From a virus, in IMG/VR virus record IMGVR_UViG_3300039366_000017: a stretch of 44,399 nucleotides of DNA; one strand, written 5' to 3'. The translations under genes and the position numbers were made by a program. The notes under the pieces were generated by a model. The model searched no databases. It was not told the DNA's origin and saw nothing but the letters and a program-made list of their open reading frames with translations. Positions 1 through 44,399 of this stretch are shown here, one piece after another (position 1 is the stretch's first letter; each line of letters starts with the position of its first letter).

Positions 1-77
1 CACAGCCTGTATAGCTAGAGCGAGACCCGTAGTTACCGTAGGCTCTCTTAAGCATGTTAGCCCACAGGTCATAAATT
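1..77. repeat. Assembly overlap: exact copy of 44323..44399 (circularly closed contig, unit length 44322 bp)
   Basis: First 77 nt read identically to the last 77 nt. A minus-strand ORF and an intron continue seamlessly across the junction. Confidence 0.9.
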
Positions 78-346
78 TTACGGATGATGCTGTTAGAACC
101 TCTTGCAGGGATTCTAATAGGAGACCCAAGGAACCCTACACCATAGACTGTAGGTTCCATAAAGTCTTCAAACTTGCCTGCCTTAATGTTGCCGGTCTGA
201 ACATCAATGACTGTACCAGTCTTGACAAACTGAATGACAGCCCTAGCATGCTTAATTTTACCGTTAGGAAGCTTATGCTTCTTAGTTCTAGACAGGATCT
301 TAATAAGACCCTTAGGAGTTTCGTAAGTTTTGTTAATTTCGTACAT
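1..346 (-). CDS. Intron-encoded homing-endonuclease-like protein, N-terminal part (191 aa in total; continues 44322..44093)
   Basis: ATG at 346 (MYEINKTYETPKG...) reads through position 1 into 44322 and stops at 44093. The C-terminal HLDKDIKKGYCKIYSRDHCKFVSAAEN resembles an HNH (beta-beta-alpha-Me) motif. The ORF lies entirely inside the intron, downstream of the ribozyme core. Confidence 0.6.
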   Translation of the reverse strand, partial: MYEINKTYETPKGLIKILSRTKKHKLPNGKIKHARAVIQFVKTGTVIDVQTGNIKAGKFEDFMEPTVYGVGFLGSPIRIPARGSNSIIRKIYDLWANMLKRAYGNYGSRSSYTGC

Positions 347-554
347 AGTTATGTTCCTTATTAGTTGACGATGCTTCATATCTCTATGAAGACCAGACTA
401 TATCTTATACCAAAAGGTATCCCCATTTTTCGAGCTACTTAGCCCTACATAATAGTCGTTACACCTGCAATACGCTCGGCTCGGTATTGTCTTTCCTAGT
501 TAGGACTGAGTTCCACCGAATTTAAGGGGTTTAAAGACGACATGGTTAAAGTTT

Positions 555-1034
555 ATCGTCTGCGCAGATAATATCAGCACGAGAGCCTGTCAACTGTCCT
601 CTAATACCTACGGATTTAACTGAAGGTGAATGGTCCGGTTTGGCTGGCCCGACGTCAAAAAGGTTCTGAGTATCTCTCTGACCTTCACGAGCCTTCAGGT
701 GATCCAAGAAAGGAAGCTCATTGATGATCTTCTTAATAAAGGTTGCATTAGCATCAGCTCTTTCCTTATTAGCTGAGACAATCATAATCTTGAGCTGAGG
801 GTTCTTCCATAGGCACCATACTACATAAGCACAAGTAATGAAACTCTTAGCTACCCCTCGGAACCCCATAAGAATGAATCTATCATTAGGGGGATGCTGT
901 AGTGTCTTAGCAATATCTACCTGAATAGGAGTAGTCTGTGGTAACCCAATAGTCTGCCACACTAAGCTGCAGAACAATGGAAAACTATTAAAGTATGGAA
1001 TCAATGCTTTAGTTGACAAGGCCATTAGCTCCAT
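555..1034 (-). CDS. Terminase large subunit (T7 gp19-like), exon 1 (ATPase N-terminal part)
   Basis: Walker A-like GFRGVAKSF and Walker B ...[11 protein letters not shown]. The listed ORF 546..1034 runs 3 codons into the intron before stopping. Confidence 0.85.
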
Positions 1035-3240: not shown

Positions 3241-4032
3241 CATTATATTCATATAGGTTCGTTACTCCTATACCGTTTATTAAACTGCTCATAGTCACCT
3301 ATGAGATTAGACTATATCTTCTGAGGACTGAGCCTCAGTTCCGCTTTTCGATTCACTTGAATCTACACCCTTACATTCATCAGGGTTAGTCGTTGGGCAT
3401 TCACATCGAACAACACGAATCCCAAGCTCAGGCAGCTTTCCACTATAGAAGCGTAAGACTGTTTTAATACGCTCTACAGGAAGCCCTAAACTATGGGCAC
3501 ATTCAGTCATAGAATCAAAGTACACCTTAGGCTCTGTGGTAATATATACTGGCTGTTTCTTGAACTTAGTAGAAGGGTCTCTAACAGTTTCCCGATAGCC
3601 CTTCTTAATGTTCTCACTTTGGGTAACCCATCGCAGATTAGTGTACATGTTATTAGTCTTATCCCCATCGATATGGTCTACAACCAACCCTTCTTGCTTA
3701 CCTTTTACAAAAAGTGTAGCAACAATCTGATGAGTATACAAAGACTTACGCCGAATCTTACCATTAGCACTACTAAAGAGATCACAACGGGCATAGCCAT
3801 TGTTATTCATAGTCTGAGCTTTGATTCGATTATAGCGTTTAGAGAAGATTCTCCCCATGTTAGAGACACAATAAAGGTTCTCCCATTCAGGGACATCTTT
3901 CCAAATTTCTTGATTATTAGTGTTGTTCATATTATATACGTAGTTATACGTTCAATAAAAGTGTTTAGCAACGGATTTGCTTAATATAAGCTCTCCCCGT
4001 TTTAACGGAATTTTATATGGGCAGTATTACGC
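3241..4032 (-). mobile_element. Group I intron 2 of nrdD (792 nt) carrying an HNH endonuclease ORF
   Basis: Exon AUGGGU pairs with guide GCCCAU (U-G at the junction, exon ends at 4033). R-like GGTGTAGA and S-like AGATATAGTC lie at the 3' end. The intron ends ..ATAATG with G at 3241. Confidence 0.8.
3307..3930 (-). CDS. HNH homing endonuclease (NUMOD4-like N-terminus plus HNH_3-like core)
   Basis: WKDVPEWENLYCVSNMGRIFS and VVDHIDGDKTNNMYTNLRWVTQSEN. The last codons run into the intron S element. Confidence 0.85.
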   Translation of the reverse strand: MNNTNNQEIWKDVPEWENLYCVSNMGRIFSKRYNRIKAQTMNNNGYARCDLFSSANGKIRRKSLYTHQIVATLFVKGKQEGLVVDHIDGDKTNNMYTNLRWVTQSENIKKGYRETVRDPSTKFKKQPVYITTEPKVYFDSMTECAHSLGLPVERIKTVLRFYSGKLPELGIRVVRCECPTTNPDECKGVDSSESKSGTEAQSSEDIV

Positions 4033-4578: not shown

Positions 4579-5350
4579 CAGCGGAATCTCCCTAAACCGC
4601 TCTGTGGACTATCTCTTAAGCATTACTGCTTGTGTGCGCTTCGACCGGTAACCACTTCCGGCCTACTCTACTCACCTTTCGGATTTCGATAGTCTCTACA
4701 CCTTCTGCAAGAGTCTTAGCGATAATCTCAGGGTGACTGTAGTAGTAATTCACAGTAATTCCCGCTGCTTTGCAGGCATCCTTGATACTACCATATGTGA
4801 TCCCCTGATACATGCATTTCTTAGCTACTCCCGGCTTCTTACCTTTCATTCCATCAGAGTTTTCAGACCAAGACAACCACCTAAGGTTCTCGACCCTGTT
4901 GTCCTGTCGGTTCCTGTTCATGTGATCTACACAATAACTAGGATCAGGCTTAGGACCAAGAAAGGTCTCTGCTACAACCTGATGAACCTTCTTGTAGATT
5001 CGCTTCTTGTTGATAGAGAAAAGGATTTCAAAGTAGCCATCTTTGTCTACCTTATACGAAAGCTTCTTAGGAGCTCTTGTATAGTCAATCCTCTTATCAG
5101 GAGTAGATTTAGCGGCCGGTTTCCTGAACGAGACTACCTCTCCATCTTTAGAGACAAAGTAGCCTTCATAGGGAGTAGAAAAATATTTATCGATTTGCAT
5201 GTATGAATACCTCTTGTAGCTTGGCACGGGATTCCTTTCGGTTCCCCGTTAGCTGAAATCATATTAACAATATGGGGGCGTATCCCCTAAATTTCAACAC
5301 CGCAAGTCATGCGTTCACACACTTTTAATTCGGCAGTTTCTATTGATCGC
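4579..5350 (-). mobile_element. Group I intron 1 of nrdD (772 nt) carrying an HNH endonuclease ORF
   Basis: Exon UUCGGU (ends at 5351) pairs with guide GCCGAA. R-like GGTGTAGAGACTAT and S-like TAAGAGATAGTCC are present. The terminal G is at 4579. Confidence 0.8.
4616..5227 (-). CDS. HNH homing endonuclease
   Basis: YCVDHMNRNRQDNRVENLRWLSWSEN motif. The C-terminal ~30 codons overlap the R/P8/S region of the intron core. Confidence 0.85.
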   Translation of the reverse strand: MPSYKRYSYMQIDKYFSTPYEGYFVSKDGEVVSFRKPAAKSTPDKRIDYTRAPKKLSYKVDKDGYFEILFSINKKRIYKKVHQVVAETFLGPKPDPSYCVDHMNRNRQDNRVENLRWLSWSENSDGMKGKKPGVAKKCMYQGITYGSIKDACKAAGITVNYYYSHPEIIAKTLAEGVETIEIRKVSRVGRKWLPVEAHTSSNA

Positions 5351-24619: not shown

Positions 24620-25368
24620 CTTTAATATTATCGGGGAGGCGTTACTTCCCCACTTATAGTTACCTATAAGAATAGACTATATCTTACCTAAAGGTTTCTA
24701 CATTTCGAGCCACTTGGCTCTACTCCTTTCGGATAGTCGTTACACTCACTTAACCTTCTTAGCACCTGTAACCCTAGCCCAAGATTTACCCTTCCAAATA
24801 TTTTGGATAGTCCCACGAGAAACGTCTATTTTGTGGCGATTCTTAAACTGTGTAGGCGTCAATCCACTATCTCGGAATTTGTAAATAAAGAGTACTTCTT
24901 CCGTAGTTAGCTTATGCGTCCCAATAAGTTCCCCATGTTGTTCCATGTGTAAACCGTTGCCCCAACAGTGTCGAATATTCTGTTTAGCAGTACACCACTC
25001 TAGGTTGCCCACAGAGTTGTTATAACGGTTCCCATCCTTGTGATTAACTTGAGGGTAATTATTAGGATTTGGAATAAATGCTTGAGCAACAAGACGATGC
25101 AAAGGGATAAACTTAGAGCAATGATCTGCACCTAAATGTACCTTCACATATCTGTTTGTCTTGGTTATAGATGTACCTTTAATCCATTTGCCATTATCCT
25201 CATTAAAGATTGTTCCATCTTCAAATAAGGTATAATTATGGACACATGGAAAAGGCAATAATTCATTAAGGTTGGTTTTTCTCATAGTTAAAAACCTCGT
25301 TAGCTCGGTATTGTCCCAGAGGGATGTTCACCGAATTAGTAGAATTTATAGAGAGCCACTTTTATTTA
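24620..25368 (-). mobile_element. Group I intron in the portal gene (749 nt) carrying an HNH endonuclease ORF
   Basis: Exon AGAGGGU (ends at 25369) pairs with guide GCUCUCU (25356..25350), with U-G at the junction. P AATTCGGTGAAC, Q ATACCGAGCT, R GTGTAACGACTAT and S TAAGATATAGTC are present. The terminal G is at 24620. Confidence 0.8.
24746..25285 (-). CDS. HNH homing endonuclease (179 aa), inserted between the Q and R elements of the portal intron
   Basis: HRLVAQAFIPNPNNYPQVNHKDGNRYNNSVGNLEWCTAKQN motif. Confidence 0.85.
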   Translation of the reverse strand: MRKTNLNELLPFPCVHNYTLFEDGTIFNEDNGKWIKGTSITKTNRYVKVHLGADHCSKFIPLHRLVAQAFIPNPNNYPQVNHKDGNRYNNSVGNLEWCTAKQNIRHCWGNGLHMEQHGELIGTHKLTTEEVLFIYKFRDSGLTPTQFKNRHKIDVSRGTIQNIWKGKSWARVTGAKKVK

Positions 25369-31072: not shown

Positions 31073-32698
31073 CTAGAATGGGCAGTCACCTAAGCCATCC
31101 TCAAATGGGCAATCGTAGTCCTTTAGTCGGCCTGTTTCGGGATCATAATAGAGATAACCACCTATACCAGTCAAACCACTGAAACGATTCTTAAGTACTC
31201 TAATGGCCATGACATTAGGATTATCTCCCTGTTGATTCCTCTCCAGGCCAATCACCATATCTGCAAGCTGAGCGATAGCACCGGAACCCCTAAGTTGACT
31301 TAAAGACACCTGAGCTCCTTCTTCGTGACCTTTCTTATCGGGGCGCTTAAGGTGACTAACAACATACATAGTACACCCTGTTTCTTCAACAAGGGATCTA
31401 AGGTTTGTCATTAGTTTGTCAATAGCTTTACGCTCCCCGCCATCGTCACTATTGTCCATACCAGAGACAACAATAGAGATATGGTCTAGGAAGATTCTCT
31501 TGCATCCTAAAGCTACGATCATGTATCTAAGCTTACTAAGCAGATTCCCAGAATCAAGTGATCCAAAGTGATCATAGAGGAAGAACTTTCCGTTGCCAAT
31601 CGTGACATCAAAAGCACTCTTGAGTTCTTCTTTAGAAACACTATCGGGATCCACGCTGATAATGAGACGTCTATTAAGAAATATGGACATAAGTTCAAGT
31701 CCCGTCTTTGCCGTAGATTCCTCAAGAGCAACCACGCCACAAGTCTCGCCTTTAGAGACACCAAAGAAATATTCAAGCTCTCTGAGTAAAGTGGATTTTC
31801 CCATACCTGATCCTGAGGTAATGACATAAAGCTCACCGTGTCTAGCACCGTTTGTCTTGCTTTGGAGAGCTTGAAAAGGATAGGCCACACTGTCTTTAAG
31901 ACTATCAAGACCTTCCACACACTTCTCATAGAGATCTTGACCTGAAACAATTCCATCAGGTCTGTAAGGCTTAGCGTTCCATATGGCCGATACAAGGTCA
32001 CCTGATCTCCCAGCCTTAAGACACTCATTAGGATCCTTAAGAGGTAGATTAGCAATGTACGCTTTACCCACTGGGAGAATCTTTGCACAATCTTCACATG
32101 CTTTACGTCCCGGATCATCCATATCAAACATTAGGATGATCTCTTCAAAGTTATTTAGATACTCTAGGTTAGCTTCAATGGCTTTCCTAGCAGCCTGAGC
32201 ACCATTAGGGATAGACACTACAGGCCACTTATTGCCTTGCATTTGAGACACACTAAGGGCATCTATCTCACCCTCAGTGATTACTAGTTTCTTACCACTA
32301 GACCACAACTGAGAACCATAGAGGCACCCAGAGATCTTCCCTAGTACAGCAAAAGACTTATCAGGGAATCTAAGCTTTTGTCCTACAAGAGAACCCTTGT
32401 CATCATAGTAGCAAGCCACTTGACAAGGGTTACCCTTATACTCCCCCACGAAATACTTTAGCTTAGTACAAGTATCTTTAGTGATACCCCTAGCAGGCAA
32501 AGCAGAGATCTGTAGTTCCTCTAAAGGAATCATATTGGATGCTGACATCTTTACCCCCTTGGGTTTGTCCAAAGATCCATCAGGTCTAAAATAAGTGGTA
32601 CAGCTATAGCAATACTTATGACCGTCACTAAAAACAGCAAGAGCATCACTAGAGCCGCAATTAGGACAAGGCTCATGGTGCAGAAAGGTCGATTCCAT
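31073..32698 (-). CDS. Primase-helicase (T7 gp4-like, 541 aa)
   Basis: Zn ribbon CPNCGSSD..CYSC, TOPRIM EGEIDALS / FDMDDPG, Walker A GSGMGKST, Walker B IFLDHIS. Confidence 0.95.
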   Translation of the reverse strand: MESTFLHHEPCPNCGSSDALAVFSDGHKYCYSCTTYFRPDGSLDKPKGVKMSASNMIPLEELQISALPARGITKDTCTKLKYFVGEYKGNPCQVACYYDDKGSLVGQKLRFPDKSFAVLGKISGCLYGSQLWSSGKKLVITEGEIDALSVSQMQGNKWPVVSIPNGAQAARKAIEANLEYLNNFEEIILMFDMDDPGRKACEDCAKILPVGKAYIANLPLKDPNECLKAGRSGDLVSAIWNAKPYRPDGIVSGQDLYEKCVEGLDSLKDSVAYPFQALQSKTNGARHGELYVITSGSGMGKSTLLRELEYFFGVSKGETCGVVALEESTAKTGLELMSIFLNRRLIISVDPDSVSKEELKSAFDVTIGNGKFFLYDHFGSLDSGNLLSKLRYMIVALGCKRIFLDHISIVVSGMDNSDDGGERKAIDKLMTNLRSLVEETGCTMYVVSHLKRPDKKGHEEGAQVSLSQLRGSGAIAQLADMVIGLERNQQGDNPNVMAIRVLKNRFSGLTGIGGYLYYDPETGRLKDYDCPFEDGLGDCPF

Positions 32699-34310
32699 GA
32701 TCTAGCATATAACGTGCACTTTGGAAATCACGAAGGTTATATTGAAAGCCTGTATCAAAGCTGTATCGGCACTGATGTTCAAAAGGTGTCATATGCCCAC
32801 TATCAATAAGCCGCTTAGCAAGAGTAAGGTCCTTTAGGATATCCGGCTTAGACCCATCGTGATTAAGGTAAGACACTCGGGCACAACGTGCAGCAGAGAT
32901 AAGTGTGAGAATCCGCAGATCATCGATAGCATCCATCTCATCAAAGTTCACATACGGAAGCGTACGCCCCCCGTGAGCATTGATATAAATGTAGGTGTTG
33001 CTAACGGCATTCATAGCCATCTTAATAGCCTTAGCAAGGTGCTGGATCTCTGGATCAGCATCAGGAGACAACCGGAGATCAAAGAAATTGCTCCACTCAG
33101 TAGCAGTGACAATAACTTTAATCTTAGTGAAGGGCTCAAGGATGCGATTGATGTGCTGCTTATGAAACCCATTGTCAATCATCTTATGAGCAACCTCGAT
33201 TGCCTTAAATGCAGCATCTTGCCACTCTTCACAAAAGATATCATAGTCCTCTTCATTGACAATATCTTTGCCTTGCATGCCCTTGCAATTCTTATAGACA
33301 TCCGAAGGCACCCAAGGATCATTCAAGATATTCTGAATAGTTCGCTCTACAGGTACCGCACGCGAGCTAGAGGCATTACGACTGAAACAGTTATGCACTG
33401 TAATCCCGTTTGCTAGGAAGTTATGGTATTCAGATGAAACCGAAATATCAAATACCTCTTCTTCACCAACATACTCAATGGAATCTACCTCTACTGCCAT
33501 AACATTACATTGGCTAACACCTTGCCAACCCTGCTTACTATGCCTGAGCTTATGACAATCCTGACAAAGTGCAACCACATTATTAATGTCAAAAGCAAGA
33601 TCAGGGTTTTCATACCTCGGAATCACGTGATGAATTTCTAAAGGCTTGTTCTCAGCACCACAATCAGCACATCGAAACCCCTGCCTTTCAGACACTTCAG
33701 GCTTAACCTTTTTATTCCAACAAGAAACCCATTCTCCATTAATCTTCTTGTAAGGATCAAAACGAAGTTCTGTATACTTCTTACGAGTATTGCAGTACAC
33801 CTTATCTCTACCTACAGCAATGTCCTGCAACTCCTTCCAACCACTATCAGTAAGAATTAGATGGTCTGCAGTGCAAGTTACGGAGAAATCTCCTGCTGTA
33901 ATCTTATACACAGGCTTAACCCCAACCTTCCAACAATCAGTAATGGTCGTGTGAGTAACTTCCATCGTAGACTCATCCACAGAACGAAGACGCATCTTGT
34001 TCAAACGACCTTTCATGTCATATCGCCGTACTCCGCCCCATCGAGTAGCATGAGGGGAACTACCGTTTTCCCACTTATCCCAAAAATCTCCCAGTGTAAT
34101 TTGATAGGATCTGTGTTTGCTACCCCTGCTTCCACTAGGGAGATCGAAAGTCAGCACTGTATCTGCAGTGAGGCACCTGTGTGTCATGAATTCACTATGG
34201 ATGAAACGAGGATACTCCAATTCAAACGTATAGAGGTTATCCCAGCGTGCACGAATGATAGCTTTAGAGTTACCTACGCAATAGACCTTAGAGATAGGAT
34301 CATCACTCAT
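32673..34310 (-). CDS. thyX: ThyX-like FAD-dependent thymidylate synthase precursor containing an in-frame intein
   Basis: FMTHR-[intein]-CFSRNASSSRAVP reconstitutes a ThyX RHRxxSxxxxSxR-type motif. Also has ..INRILEPF..TATEWSNFFDLR..EIQHLA. The start is set at MSDDPISK (GAGGAGG upstream); the listed M-rich extension is discounted. Confidence 0.75.
   Translation of the reverse strand: MSDDPISKVYCVGNSKAIIRARWDNLYTFELEYPRFIHSEFMTHRCLTADTVLTFDLPSGSRGSKHRSYQITLGDFWDKWENGSSPHATRWGGVRRYDMKGRLNKMRLRSVDESTMEVTHTTITDCWKVGVKPVYKITAGDFSVTCTADHLILTDSGWKELQDIAVGRDKVYCNTRKKYTELRFDPYKKINGEWVSCWNKKVKPEVSERQGFRCADCGAENKPLEIHHVIPRYENPDLAFDINNVVALCQDCHKLRHSKQGWQGVSQCNVMAVEVDSIEYVGEEEVFDISVSSEYHNFLANGITVHNCFSRNASSSRAVPVERTIQNILNDPWVPSDVYKNCKGMQGKDIVNEEDYDIFCEEWQDAAFKAIEVAHKMIDNGFHKQHINRILEPFTKIKVIVTATEWSNFFDLRLSPDADPEIQHLAKAIKMAMNAVSNTYIYINAHGGRTLPYVNFDEMDAIDDLRILTLISAARCARVSYLNHDGSKPDILKDLTLAKRLIDSGHMTPFEHQCRYSFDTGFQYNLRDFQSARYMLDHGIDLSAP
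33390..34175 (-). mobile_element. HNH-type intein (262 aa) within ThyX
   Basis: Starts CLTADTVL (block A) and has TADH (block B TxxH). Central CADCG...HHVIPRYENPDLAFDINNVVALCQDCHKLRH is an HNH motif. Ends VFDISV..NGITVHN followed by the +1 Cys. Confidence 0.8.
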
Positions 34311-34473
34311 CTTCATCATCCTCCTCATCAATCTCATCATCAGCATCATCTTCAGAATCTAGGAAGGCTTCATATTCATACTCCCACTTCTCTTTCTGAT
34401 TGTTGTGAAGCTCATCACGATATGAATCTCCATCAGGATAATGCCAATCTGATTTACGTTCAATAGGTTCCAT
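34303..34473 (-). CDS. Small highly acidic protein (56 aa; below the ORF-track cutoff)
   Basis: Hand translation gives MEPIERKSDWHYPDGDSYRDELHNNQKEKWEYEYEAFLDSEDDADDEIDEEDDEDE. The stop overlaps the thyX start. Confidence 0.45.
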   Translation of the reverse strand: MEPIERKSDWHYPDGDSYRDELHNNQKEKWEYEYEAFLDSEDDADDEIDEEDDEDE

Positions 34474-34510: not shown

Positions 34511-34595
34511 TGGTAGGCCGAGGGGGATTCGAACCCCCATGCTCTAAGCGGCGCATTTTAAGTGCGCTGAGTCTCACCAATTTCTCCATCAGCCC
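34511..34595 (-). tRNA. tRNA-Leu (anticodon UAA), class II, CCA encoded
   Basis: The reverse complement folds as GGGCTGA-TG-GAG/AAATTGGTGAGA/CTC-A-GCGCA/CTTAAAA/TGCGC-variable arm-GGGGG/TTCGAAT/CCCCC-TCGGCCT-A-CCA. The acceptor stem has 2 G-U pairs. Confidence 0.8.
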
Positions 34596-42475: not shown

Positions 42476-42988
42476 TTATCTTGTAAACTTGTATCCCTCT
42501 GAATATTTGTATTTATTGAATCCCTTGGAAGTACCTGATTCTCTTACATTTTCTGTAATTGTATTTATTCCTAATTTCCCCCCTATTTCTCTAGTTACGA
42601 ATCCATAAAAACTTTCTAAAGATTCCTCTAGCCATTCTGAAGTTACTTCATTTATTCCTTCATCAGCATCAATTCCCATGAAGTCTACTAAATACTTGAC
42701 ACCTATAGCTAGGCAATCGATAGCGTCATCGTGAACTAGTGCTCCTCTGTCTGATGTGATTCTAGTCAGCTGATAGAACAGGGAGTACTTATAGTCACCT
42801 TCAGGTACACTATCGATATCCTTATTGATGCACTCAGGGGTAACTATCATCTTATGGTTACCTAGGACAGGCTCTAGTGTGTCTATGATACGTACTTCTT
42901 TTTGGCCTGTAGACTTGACTTCAGTTAAGCCACAGTCTTTATAAGTTTTCCTAAGGACAGGCTCAAAGAGCTTGAGGTACATACCATC
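42476..42988 (-). CDS. Terminase large subunit, exon 3 (nuclease domain C-terminal part)
   Basis: Starts DGMYLKLFEPVL (completing NFG-DGM). Contains YSLFYQLTRITSDRGALVHDDAIDCLAIG, as in T7 gp19. Confidence 0.85.
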   Translation of the reverse strand, partial: DGMYLKLFEPVLRKTYKDCGLTEVKSTGQKEVRIIDTLEPVLGNHKMIVTPECINKDIDSVPEGDYKYSLFYQLTRITSDRGALVHDDAIDCLAIGVKYLVDFMGIDADEGINEVTSEWLEESLESFYGFVTREIGGKLGINTITENVRESGTSKGFNKYKYSEGYKFTR

Positions 42989-43301
42989 CATTATGTTTAC
43001 ATAAGTTCGTTACGCTTATGCCTTGGGGCTATACATTACTGTATAGATCGGACTATATCTTAACAATAGCTAATCTTCCAACCTCTTCTACCACGAATAC
43101 CTTTATAGAGGAGGTTTCTTATATTACCTCTAGCAAATCCTAGAGTATCTGCACATTATTCTTATAGCTATTGTTCCCACTTTTTCAGATCACTTGATCT
43201 TACAATTAGTCTCTACACCTTCCTATTTCTAGGCTTGGCTCGGTATCGTCCCTTAGGGAGTTTCACCGAATTTAATGGGTTTTATTTCGGCAATGTTGTT
43301 T
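42989..43301 (-). mobile_element. ORF-less group I intron 2 of the terminase large-subunit gene (313 nt)
   Basis: Exon UUCGGU (ends at 43302) pairs with guide GCCGAA. Contains P TTAAATTCGGTGAAAC, the TCCC-TAA-GGGA hairpin, Q GATACCGAGCC, the CCTA-GAAA-TAGG hairpin, R GGTGTAGAGACTAA and S TTAAGATATAGTCC. It ends ..ATAATG with G at 42989. Confidence 0.85.
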
Positions 43302-44090
43302 ACCGAAGTTACCTTCAATGACTACCTCATTAACCTTCCATTTCTTAGCAGTGCTCGCTAGTTTATTTAGGACTACATCAGAGTAGCCTCCCATAAGTCC
43401 TCCTGCATCCATCAGATAGATGTATCCATTGAGGTAATATAGGATGCAATAGGCCGTGGCATCACGTCCACGCCCCGAGGGATCAACTGCCATCATCTTA
43501 TAGGTATACTTCTCCATCTCAGGTGAAGCTGTATGGCACCTATAATAGGCATCACCCTTTAGTCCCATTACCTTTGGGATCTCCTGAAGGGAGACCTTAC
43601 GAGCAGGATCAGGCATCCATGTAAGCTTCATAGGTGCTTCATCTGTACTGAAGGTGCCTACAATGAGGTCTCTAAGTCTCAATGGATACTTATCAGCATC
43701 AGATAAGCTAGTGTCTAACATGAACTGGAGTAGGAAGCCTGCTCTTCTATATGACAGCTCTCGTTTCTGTAGATCCTCTTCATTGAATCTAAGGGGATCT
43801 GTAGGCTTACCTGCGTACTTCTGAGGGTTACTATCGTACTTATCTGCAATGAACTTAGCTAGGCGTGTACCATAGTTAGCTCTCTGGGTCTCATCATAAG
43901 GATATCTTGCAGGGTAGATGATAGCAGTGTACCCTCTCTCCTGAAGCTCATTATAGAGAGACATTTCATTCTGAGGAGTACCAAGGTAAATGATGGTGCC
44001 ATTAGGTTTGATAACAGCGTCAAACTCCTTCACCAACTCGAATAGCTGATCTCGAAGAACCTGAGTAAATGAATTAGATGGAACTTCCAC
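43302..44090 (-). CDS. Terminase large subunit, exon 2
   Basis: Starts VEVPSNS (GTG is the first exon codon, not a start codon). Contains IYLGTPQNEMSLY, KYPLRLRDLIV and MAVDPSGRG, and ends ..EGNFG. Confidence 0.85.
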
Positions 44091-44322
44091 CTTTATGTTA
44101 AGGTAAGGTCGTTAGTCTTACCCCATCGTCTTTTCACAGAATCTGCCACATTTTCAGCGGCAGAGACAAACTTACAATGATCCCTAGAATAAATCTTGCA
44201 GTAACCCTTCTTAATGTCCTTATCAAGGTGCATGCTAGAATCCTTCTCCCACTCTTCATATCCTTCTACCTCATGGATAGTATTCAAGAAAGTGGTGAAG
44301 TTATGCCATCTAGGATCTACTA
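44091..44322 (-). mobile_element. Terminase intron 1, 3' part (continues from 1..554 across the circular junction)
   Basis: The intron ends AG with the terminal G at 44091, 2 nt after the endonuclease stop codon (44093..44095). Confidence 0.75.
44093..44322 (-). CDS. Intron-encoded homing-endonuclease-like protein, C-terminal part (continuation of 346..1)
   Basis: Same frame across the junction. The listed ORF 44093..44377 is the truncated view of this gene. Confidence 0.6.
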
Positions 44323-44399
44323 CACAGCCTGTATAGCTAGAGCGAGACCCGTAGTTACCGTAGGCTCTCTTAAGCATGTTAGCCCACAGGTCATAAATT
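44323..44399. repeat. Assembly overlap: exact copy of 1..77
   Basis: Identical 77-mer at both window ends. Confidence 0.9.

Follow-up and report, generated by a model that had tools for sequence, protein, structure and literature searches.

The 44,399-nucleotide (nt) contig IMGVR_UViG_3300039366_000017 of the IMG/VR database, whose full length is hereafter called the window, derives from a T7-like gut phage in which terL, the gene of the large terminase subunit, is very probably interrupted, directly behind the Walker B aspartates, by a self-splicing and mobile intron of group I (subgroup-IA type), which carries a nuclease-like open reading frame (ORF). Comparing this element (intron 1) with its relatives in cultured phages and in metagenomes, we established its anatomy and exact boundaries, the conservation and covariation of its structure, its presence/absence polymorphism among related alleles and the purifying selection exerted on its ORF. 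With such an anatomy, the terL transcript would have to be spliced to produce an intact terminase.

Boundaries of the intron and the conceptually spliced terminase

A previous sequence-only reading of the window had proposed that terL is split by a 786-nt element extending across the two contig ends, and the letters were rechecked at each of its limits. On the minus strand, ORF 546..1034 contains the exon-1 reading followed by K, L and a stop codon, and ORF 43272..44090 opens with GTG GAA GTT CCA, giving VEVPSNS. Once joined, these exons match T7 gp19 (PDB 4bij, ...gsradiiiaddveipsns...) without any gap at the junction, and the alignment of the conceptually spliced product of 593 amino acids (aa) to gp19 is gapless across both intron junctions of the gene (Table 1). 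This protein matched 4bij with an E value of 2e-168 and 8dgc with an E value of 1.5e-187 (residues 16-549), together with the Pfam family PF22530 (E 2.9e-38). Colinear with gp19 over its full length and including both the ATPase and the RNase-H-like nuclease domains, it represents a T7-type large terminase. Intron removal thus restores a reading frame that is colinear with those of T7 gp19 and of the intron-less relatives.

Among these relatives, MT835557 (human faeces) encodes a TerL about 90% identical to that of the window and uninterrupted at both ...CVDD/VEVPSNS... and ...NFG/DGMY... (slashes mark insertion points), so that both window introns are missing precisely at the predicted junctions; an intron-less target of this type reads GTTGACGAC/GTGGAGGTGCC. 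In MT835695, terL is fully uninterrupted and yields one continuous TerL match. At the nucleotide level, the limits of the element are those initially predicted: the last exon base (555) is T, thus U in the RNA, the exon end GACGAT can pair, through a U.G at the 5' splice site, with the GTCGTC of intron nt 14-19 (541..536 in the window), and the final base is a G (44091), which is also terminal in all 20 relatives compared. After subtraction of the 77-nt terminal overlap of the window, the intron length is 786 nt.

The insertion had also been placed inside the Walker B motif. The split of terL at Walker B by an intron holds, but its position has to be shifted to the C-terminal edge of the motif, after both aspartates (IICAD-D/VE): in the window, I-I-C-A-D is followed by a second D, then by the intron, and then by V-E. 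Residue numbers for the Walker B motif of T7 gp19 were not found in the literature, and the generic terminase pattern LhhhD was used instead (PMC13595956).

Spanning the window junction, with contig ends that share only a 77-nt overlap, the element could be suspected of being a chimera created by joining these ends and absent from any single molecule. The probability of such an assembly artefact is close to nil, as eight independent IMG/VR contigs contain all 786 nt contiguously (aligned 1-786, 88-93% identical) and as the 191-aa intron ORF, rebuilt across the junction, shares 99% identity with proteins annotated on other contigs. Judging from these homologous sequences, the two contig ends are genuinely joined, and the intron does cross the window junction as first proposed. 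Bases 1..77 and 44323..44399 form an exact match, leaving a unique length of 44,322 nt. The window is a circularly assembled contig, and as this overlap falls within the intron ORF, we infer that the 77-nt repeat is an assembly overlap, and not a genome terminus or a T7-type terminal repeat.

Ribozyme structure and covariation

A covariance search with the Rfam group I intron model (RF00028) matched window positions 585..374 with a score of 47.5 bits (E 6e-11 locally, 3.9e-9 for the whole window) over model positions 1-253. The model put P1 wrongly in the exon, and the P9.1 and P9.2 helices, completed only across the ORF, were out of its reach. Twenty homologous introns from GenBank phages and IMG/VR were aligned after deletion of their ORFs, and a hand-drawn structure was scored for pairing. 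Predicted partners pair in 92.3% of the cells, versus 37-45% after displacement of the 3' partners by 1-3 columns, and changes on both sides of a pair (compensatory) occur in 42 of the 66 pairs, the observed values being reached by none of 500 shuffles. Support extends to P1, P3, P4, P5/5a, P6, P7, P7.2, P8, P9, P9.1, P9.2 and P10; P2 is absent from the structure, and every helix is intact in the window copy. MAFFT misaligned the introns of Salmonella phage Vi06 and Yersinia phage fPS-9 in the P6-P7 region, and the pair counts of P6 and P7 are therefore conservative. Taken together, the Rfam alignment and the covarying P3-P8 helices bear out the P, Q, R and S core elements that had been recognised by eye.

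The 5' splice site is defined by P1, which is paired in 20/20 homologues (100%). P10 is paired at 71%, with compensatory change in three of its four pairs, and takes the forms CAAU/AUUG, CUAU/AUAG and UAAU/GUUG in relatives, pairings that support the assignment of the 3' splice site. The hairpin located between P7 and the 3' strand of P3 (P7.2) marks a subgroup-IA-type intron; a second hairpin, UUCC-GAAA-GGAA (P7.1), is present in most relatives and missing from the window copy.

According to the sequence-only reading, all the ribozyme elements would precede the ORF. This proved right for the catalytic core, which lies 5' of the ORF, but not for the 3' strand of P9.1 nor for P9.2, both located at the 3' end of the intron. 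The ORF indeed sits in the loop of P9.1, which is followed by P9.2 and by an 11-nt tail leading to the intron end, and the final 40 nt of the ORF also serve as ribozyme structure. Three natural ORF-less forms occur at the same terL site (254 nt in locus L105, 257 nt in L097 and 322 nt in L122). P9.1 is kept in these mini-introns, and the minimum-free-energy fold of the L105 form gives the same helices (z = -4.2).

These structural features allow us to weigh another explanation, in which a free-standing nuclease gene would have split terL into fragments that reassemble as protein without RNA splicing (cf. Aeh1 nrdA). Databases do list separate coding sequences in fPS-9, in Klebsiella phage vB_Kp_Z1 and in Edwardsiella phages, and exon 2 happens to start with GTG. 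However, this GTG abuts AAAG directly and has no spaced ribosome-binding site, exon 3 likewise has no start of its own at its junction, and the break falls between neighbouring residues of the ATPase active-site strand. In addition, the intervening sequence shows a group I fold that covaries and is bounded by U and G, and the insertion of a nuclease gene leaves unexplained the 254-322-nt forms that still interrupt terL while devoid of any ORF. A gene in pieces is thus extremely unlikely.

Under the preferred interpretation of a group I intron, folding of the terL pre-mRNA would bring the exon-1 GACGAU into pairing with the intron guide GUCGUC (P1, with the U.G pair at the cleavage site), and the core P3-P9 would form. 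P9.1 would close the 560-nt ORF loop and, together with P9.2, return the 3' tail to the core, where the CCAU adjoining the guide would pair with the exon-2 GUGG (P10). Attack after U555 by an exogenous guanosine, followed by attack after G44091 by the freed exon, would then, provided that the second, ORF-less intron is also spliced, yield an mRNA for the intact 593-aa terminase.

The intron ORF, its distribution and its probable mobility

As initially read, the ORF is 191 aa long, with a stop codon (44095..44093) separated by 2 nt from the 3' splice site. This proximity is a trait of the window lineage, in which the loop of P9.2 is 1 nt shorter and the frame reads on; in distant relatives, the stop is a UAA within the P9.2 loop, about 25-30 nt upstream of the splice site. 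An alternative in-frame ATG within the 3' strand of P9 (379..347, minus strand) adds 11 codons (MKHRQLIRNIT...). Homologues begin at the MYEINK / M..RY motif, and the 191-aa form is therefore the likely product. The ORF evolves under purifying selection, with ratios of non-synonymous to synonymous substitution rates (dN/dS) of 0.07-0.17 versus close relatives. Its homologues were recovered as 95 clusters in public data, none of which has a Pfam domain or an informative name, and one of these clusters (P0003) contains 591 member sequences.

Profile searches linked the protein to PHROG 2081 ('HNH endonuclease', E 2e-40), 953 (E 1e-24) and 374 (E 6.5e-13), these names being annotation labels only. 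Its AlphaFold2 model, with a predicted local distance difference test score (pLDDT) of 91, displays a predicted C-terminal beta-beta-alpha arrangement (beta 147-149, beta 166-168, alpha 170-182) that carries H147 and the invariant N173, and the motif HLDKD...CxFVSxxEN bears a resemblance to the HiD...LxWVTxxEN of I-HmuI-type enzymes. Structural neighbours in BFVD comprised many uncharacterised phage proteins, as well as a few proteins with the label homing endonuclease. The top Foldseek matches in the PDB were weak and involved SH3/Tudor-like barrels aligned to the N-terminus of the ORF only. The ORF was therefore not filed as an HNH enzyme; we consider it as a putative homing nuclease with a loosely HNH-like motif, its membership of the HNH family being unproven. 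Two other candidates were set aside: matches to Get1 were rejected as coiled-coil noise, and a PD-(D/E)xK reading (D118...D151-x-K153) was dropped given the poor conservation of K153 and an unfit predicted topology. The 191-aa protein would most likely cut terL alleles devoid of the intron, close to its insertion site, when two phages infect the same cell, and repair from the intron-bearing copy would then spread the element. Nuclease activity and homing are predictions, homing having only indirect indications: the presence/absence polymorphism, the ORF-less derivatives, a higher conservation of the intron than of its host gene and a dN/dS of about 0.1.

The same intron, with the same site and ORF, was identified in gene 19 of Salmonella phage Vi06 (FR667955, deposited as a two-piece join), in about 18 Yersinia fPS phages (fPS-7, fPS-9; g046/g047/g048), in the Klebsiella phages vB_Kp_Z1, RCIP0053/0089 and ZX22, in three Edwardsiella phages (vB_EtA) and in Salmonella CHRF phages, about 30 GenBank genomes of Autographiviridae being concerned. 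This includes plaque-forming cultured phages, which carry the same arrangement in an essential terL. In IMG/VR, about 18 loci among the 119 core-motif matches listed correspond to the same intron at the same site, a list that gives no frequency for intron-bearing versus intron-less alleles. Ribozyme cores of the window and of the Klebsiella/Edwardsiella phages are 76% identical, whereas their TerL proteins are only 31-36% identical (only vB_Kp_Z1 compared), which argues for lateral spread of the intron.

At the insertion site, the Asp-Asp codons are GAC-GAT in all intron-bearing alleles, and the 120 intron-less IMG/VR alleles listed read GAT-GAC (76), GAC-GAC (22), GAC-GAT (13) or GAT-GAT (9). 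This bias, observed on related sequences and without a formal test, would fit either the requirement for a 6-nt P1 pairing or co-conversion during homing.

Members of the same lineage, recognised by their P1 (GACGAU/GU(C/U)GUC), the same P9.2 loop and a homologous ORF, were also observed in a different, non-T7 terminase type, after ...HDD or ...KDD near the C-terminus, in the Pseudomonas myovirus KIL1 (L006, ~2507) and in the IMG/VR loci L023, L081 and L102. The L081 terminase also appears to hold an intein.

Several points weigh against a mobile, self-splicing intron with a nuclease ORF. The catalysis of splicing is a property that we infer from the nucleotide sequence. The RF00028 score is just below the curated gathering cut-off of 50 bits, which is a score threshold and not a structural feature; at this threshold Rfam did not report intron 1, which was found at the E-value threshold only. 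P10 is weak or absent in some relatives, such as the ZX22-type introns, which have no convincing pairing. Regarding the ORF, neither the protein nor any of 61 family members matched Pfam or NCBIfam (including the HNH families PF01844 and PF13392), no PDB match was obtained by sequence or by profile, the Foldseek comparison of its model with the PDB gave no match below E 0.019, and His147, the putative catalytic residue, occurs in only 44 of the 61 family members. Finally, gene 19 of Vi06 was flagged as a pseudogene by its depositors.

This flag and the sub-threshold Rfam score, along with the shortened P9.2 loop and the shifted ORF stop, would also suit a decayed intron, i.e. a relic in a defective or pseudogenised terL, the contig then representing a non-viable variant. 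We regard such decay as very unlikely: with all helices intact in the window copy and 92% of the family cells paired, with in-frame and highly conserved exons and an ORF kept under purifying selection, the element shows the same arrangement as in lytic phages held in culture, to which terminase is indispensable, and exists as many near-identical metagenomic copies (the 591 sequences of P0003). We consequently retain a mobile, self-splicing intron as the explanation for the interrupted gene.

Other introns of the genome and comparison with known systems

The T7-like genome of the window encodes a single-subunit RNA polymerase, a T7 primase-helicase, a family A polymerase, a portal, a nozzle and a T7 tail-fibre N-terminus. 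At least five related introns interrupt its genes (terL and nrdD with two each, the portal gene with one), and one intein is present as well (Table 1). The motif AAGA(U/G)AUAGUC is common to all five introns, and a P9.2 GUAACG loop is common to terL intron 1, nrdD intron B and the portal intron. With 80.7 bits, terL intron 2 scores above the RF00028 cut-off, and its P1 and P10 read CUUCGGU/GCCGAA and GAUG/CAUU, respectively. Both nrdD introns terminate in G, with a P1 of UUCGGU/GCCGAA in one and AUGGGU/GCCCAU in the other, and the second has a P9.2 GUAACGA hairpin. The nrdD and portal introns, with cores interrupted by their ORFs, were missed or barely seen by Rfam, which returned a 25.8-bit fragment only for the former and did not detect the latter.

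A different terL insertion was observed in the closest relative, the human-faecal phage MT835557.1 (L001, 1186..1934), 20 codons downstream (...FELV/KEFD...). This 749-nt sequence is preceded by U, ends in G, gives weak RF00028 matches (23.5 and 16.5 bits) and contains an HNH ORF of the classical type (L001 1296..1766).

Table 1. Coordinates of the terL exons and introns, of their predicted elements and of other features (window positions unless another record is named)
Feature	Position	Strand	Description
terL exon 1	555..1034	-	160 codons, Walker A to ...ADIICADD; aligns with T7 gp19 residues 17-~160; ends GACGAT
Intron 1, nt 1-554 (5' part to contig end)	1..554	-	Resumes at 44322 once the 77-nt overlap is removed
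Internal guide sequence	536..545	-	CCAU (P10, with exon-2 GUGG) then GUCGUC (P1, with exon-1 GACGAU)
Catalytic core P3-P4-P5/5a-P6-P7-P7.2-P3'-P8-P7'-P9	374..529	-	RF00028 alignment; 79-98% paired per helix
P7.2 hairpin GGGCU-AAGU-AGCUC	445..432	-	All 5 pairs covary
P9.1 5' strand CAUCGUC	367..373	-	Pairs with 44130..44124; 6/7 pairs compensatory; 95% of cells pair
Intron ORF, N-terminal part	1..346	-	ATG 346..344; AAGGAA Shine-Dalgarno 359..354, 7 nt before ATG
Intron ORF, C-terminal part and stop	44093..44322	-	191 aa in total; putative homing nuclease
P9.1 3' strand GACGAUG	44124..44130	-	Within ORF end
P9.2 hairpin GGUAAG-ACUAACGAC-CUUACC	44102..44122	-	Loop (A)GUAACGA conserved; 5/6 pairs compensatory
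Intron 1, nt 555-786 (3' part)	44091..44322	-	Terminal G at 44091; contiguous IMG/VR homologues align 1-786
Spliced junction, intron 1			...GCAGACGAU/GUGGAAGUUCC... (also given as GCAGACGAU/GUGGAAGUU)
terL exon 2	43302..44090	-	263 codons; ORF list and T7 gp19 alignment
Intron 2	42989..43301	-	313 nt, no ORF; between ...EGNFG and DGMYLK...
Spliced junction, intron 2			...GGUAACUUCGGU/GAUGGUAUGUAC...
terL exon 3	42476..42988	-	170 codons and stop; T7 gp19 alignment
End-overlap duplicate of 1..77	44323..44399	none	Exact 77-nt match, both ends
nrdD introns (two; three exons)	~5350..4579 and 4032..3241	-	I-HmuI-like HNH ORFs 5227..4616 and 3930..3307
Portal (gp8-like) intron	~25366..24620	-	HNH ORF 25285..24746 in P6 loop; P9.2 GGGGA-AGUAACGCC-UCCCC
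ThyX (Thy1) intein with HNH domain	32673..34349	-	Pfam Intein_splicing 8.8e-15, HNH 1.1e-9, Thy1 4.3e-13
tRNA gene, long variable arm	34514..34595	-	Rfam tRNA, 51 bits
Phage K1E intron in genes 40A/40B (L129, AM084415)	2215..~2950		Carries gp40.5, annotated as putative homing endonuclease

Beyond the presence of the intron, two linked and broader interpretations can be proposed, which we consider speculative and rather unlikely: an uncharacterised family of homing nucleases, and a spread of the intron between terminase families via guide pairing. The ORF may belong to a widespread nuclease family without Pfam model or solved structure, in which an SH3/Tudor-like barrel at the N-terminus would precede a C-terminus of degenerate HNH-like type. 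Such a family may not share the chemistry or the DNA recognition of I-HmuI-type enzymes. The intron lineage, for its part, may re-target any GAC-GAU (Asp-Asp) site that fits its 6-nt guide, between unrelated terminase families. The occurrence of the same lineage at ADD/ in T7-type TerL and at HDD/ in KIL1, L023, L081 and L102 would suggest reverse splicing in ectopic transposition. If this were true, ectopic transposition would depend on reverse splicing and not on nuclease specificity.

With five related introns and an intein in 44 kb, the phage would rank among the most intron-dense small phage genomes. Gene callers break such terL genes into two or three 'terminase' fragments or flag them as pseudogenes, a mis-annotation affecting TerL-based phage detection, phylogeny and the way in which gut viromes are scored for completeness. 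Within the packaging motor, selfish introns repeatedly target the catalytic codons that are most conserved, with four terL sites in T7-supergroup phages, that of phage K1E being the fourth. The cultured relatives Vi06, fPS-9 and vB_Kp_Z1 allow the study of splicing, homing and competition between co-infecting phages. The window thus provides a way into a nuclease family that is uncharacterised and into a T7-like genome dense in introns, leaving the knowledge of group I intron mechanism unchanged and adding no new kind of system.

Indeed, the intron is not new as a kind: it belongs to a known type of selfish element, and terminase introns are well known. Its layout had been likened to that of the T4 nrdD (sunY) intron, in which the core lies 5' of an ORF looped from a P9.x helix and exon ligation requires short elements at the 3' end; the likeness would be one of layout only, the T4 gene and its nuclease (I-TevII) differing from those of the window.

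Introns in the packaging genes of T7-like phages had further been thought to be rarely if ever described. A literature search returned no paper explicitly describing, for T7-like phages, a terL intron at the Walker B site, and the element is nowhere called an intron in the Vi06, fPS, Klebsiella and Edwardsiella records or in the fPS paper (PMC5923468). In this respect the statement holds, but the same intron is present in GenBank genomes, and terminase introns have been noted in K1E and phD2B.

Outside the T7-like phages, group I introns have been reported in terL of the Lactobacillus phage LL-H (Mikkonen & Alatossava 1995, as cited in PMC9610469) and described in terL of Bastillevirinae and Twort-like phages, with splicing shown in Bastillevirinae (PMC11878797). 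They represent the same kind of element in the same class of gene, some of these genes holding two or three introns, and ORFs of PHROG 2081 also occur in Bastillevirinae introns (PMC11878797). By contrast, their families, hosts and insertion sites are unrelated, and splicing was established there by experiment, whereas the window intron is known from its sequence alone. In T7-like phages, a DNA polymerase intron has been reported in PhiI/W31 and phiL7 (Bonocora & Shub 2004; Lee et al. 2009; as cited in PMC8351571 and PMC10580990), the interrupted gene being the DNA polymerase instead of the terminase.

Terminase introns of Autographiviridae are documented in K1E and in the Lelliottia phage phD2B (PMC4246154, PMC2504315), where, as in the window, terL of a podophage from the T7 supergroup is divided by a group I intron that contains a nuclease ORF, putative in the window. 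The core of the K1E intron is about 76% identical to that of window intron 2. Its site differs, being located after ...YIDPAG in the nuclease domain, as does its ORF gp40.5, which appears GIY-YIG-like on reading the sequence. Finally, the Vi06, fPS, Klebsiella and Edwardsiella copies share with the window intron the insertion point (...ADD/VE... or ...ADD/IE...), the P1 pairing GACGAU/GUCGUC, the core, the ORF in the P9.1 loop and the P9.2 GUAACGA loop, their ORF homologues being 43-49% identical in aa sequence. They differ in belonging to other phage genera, with TerL about 35-60% identical, and in their stop codon, located in the P9.2 loop instead of 2 nt from the splice site as in the window.

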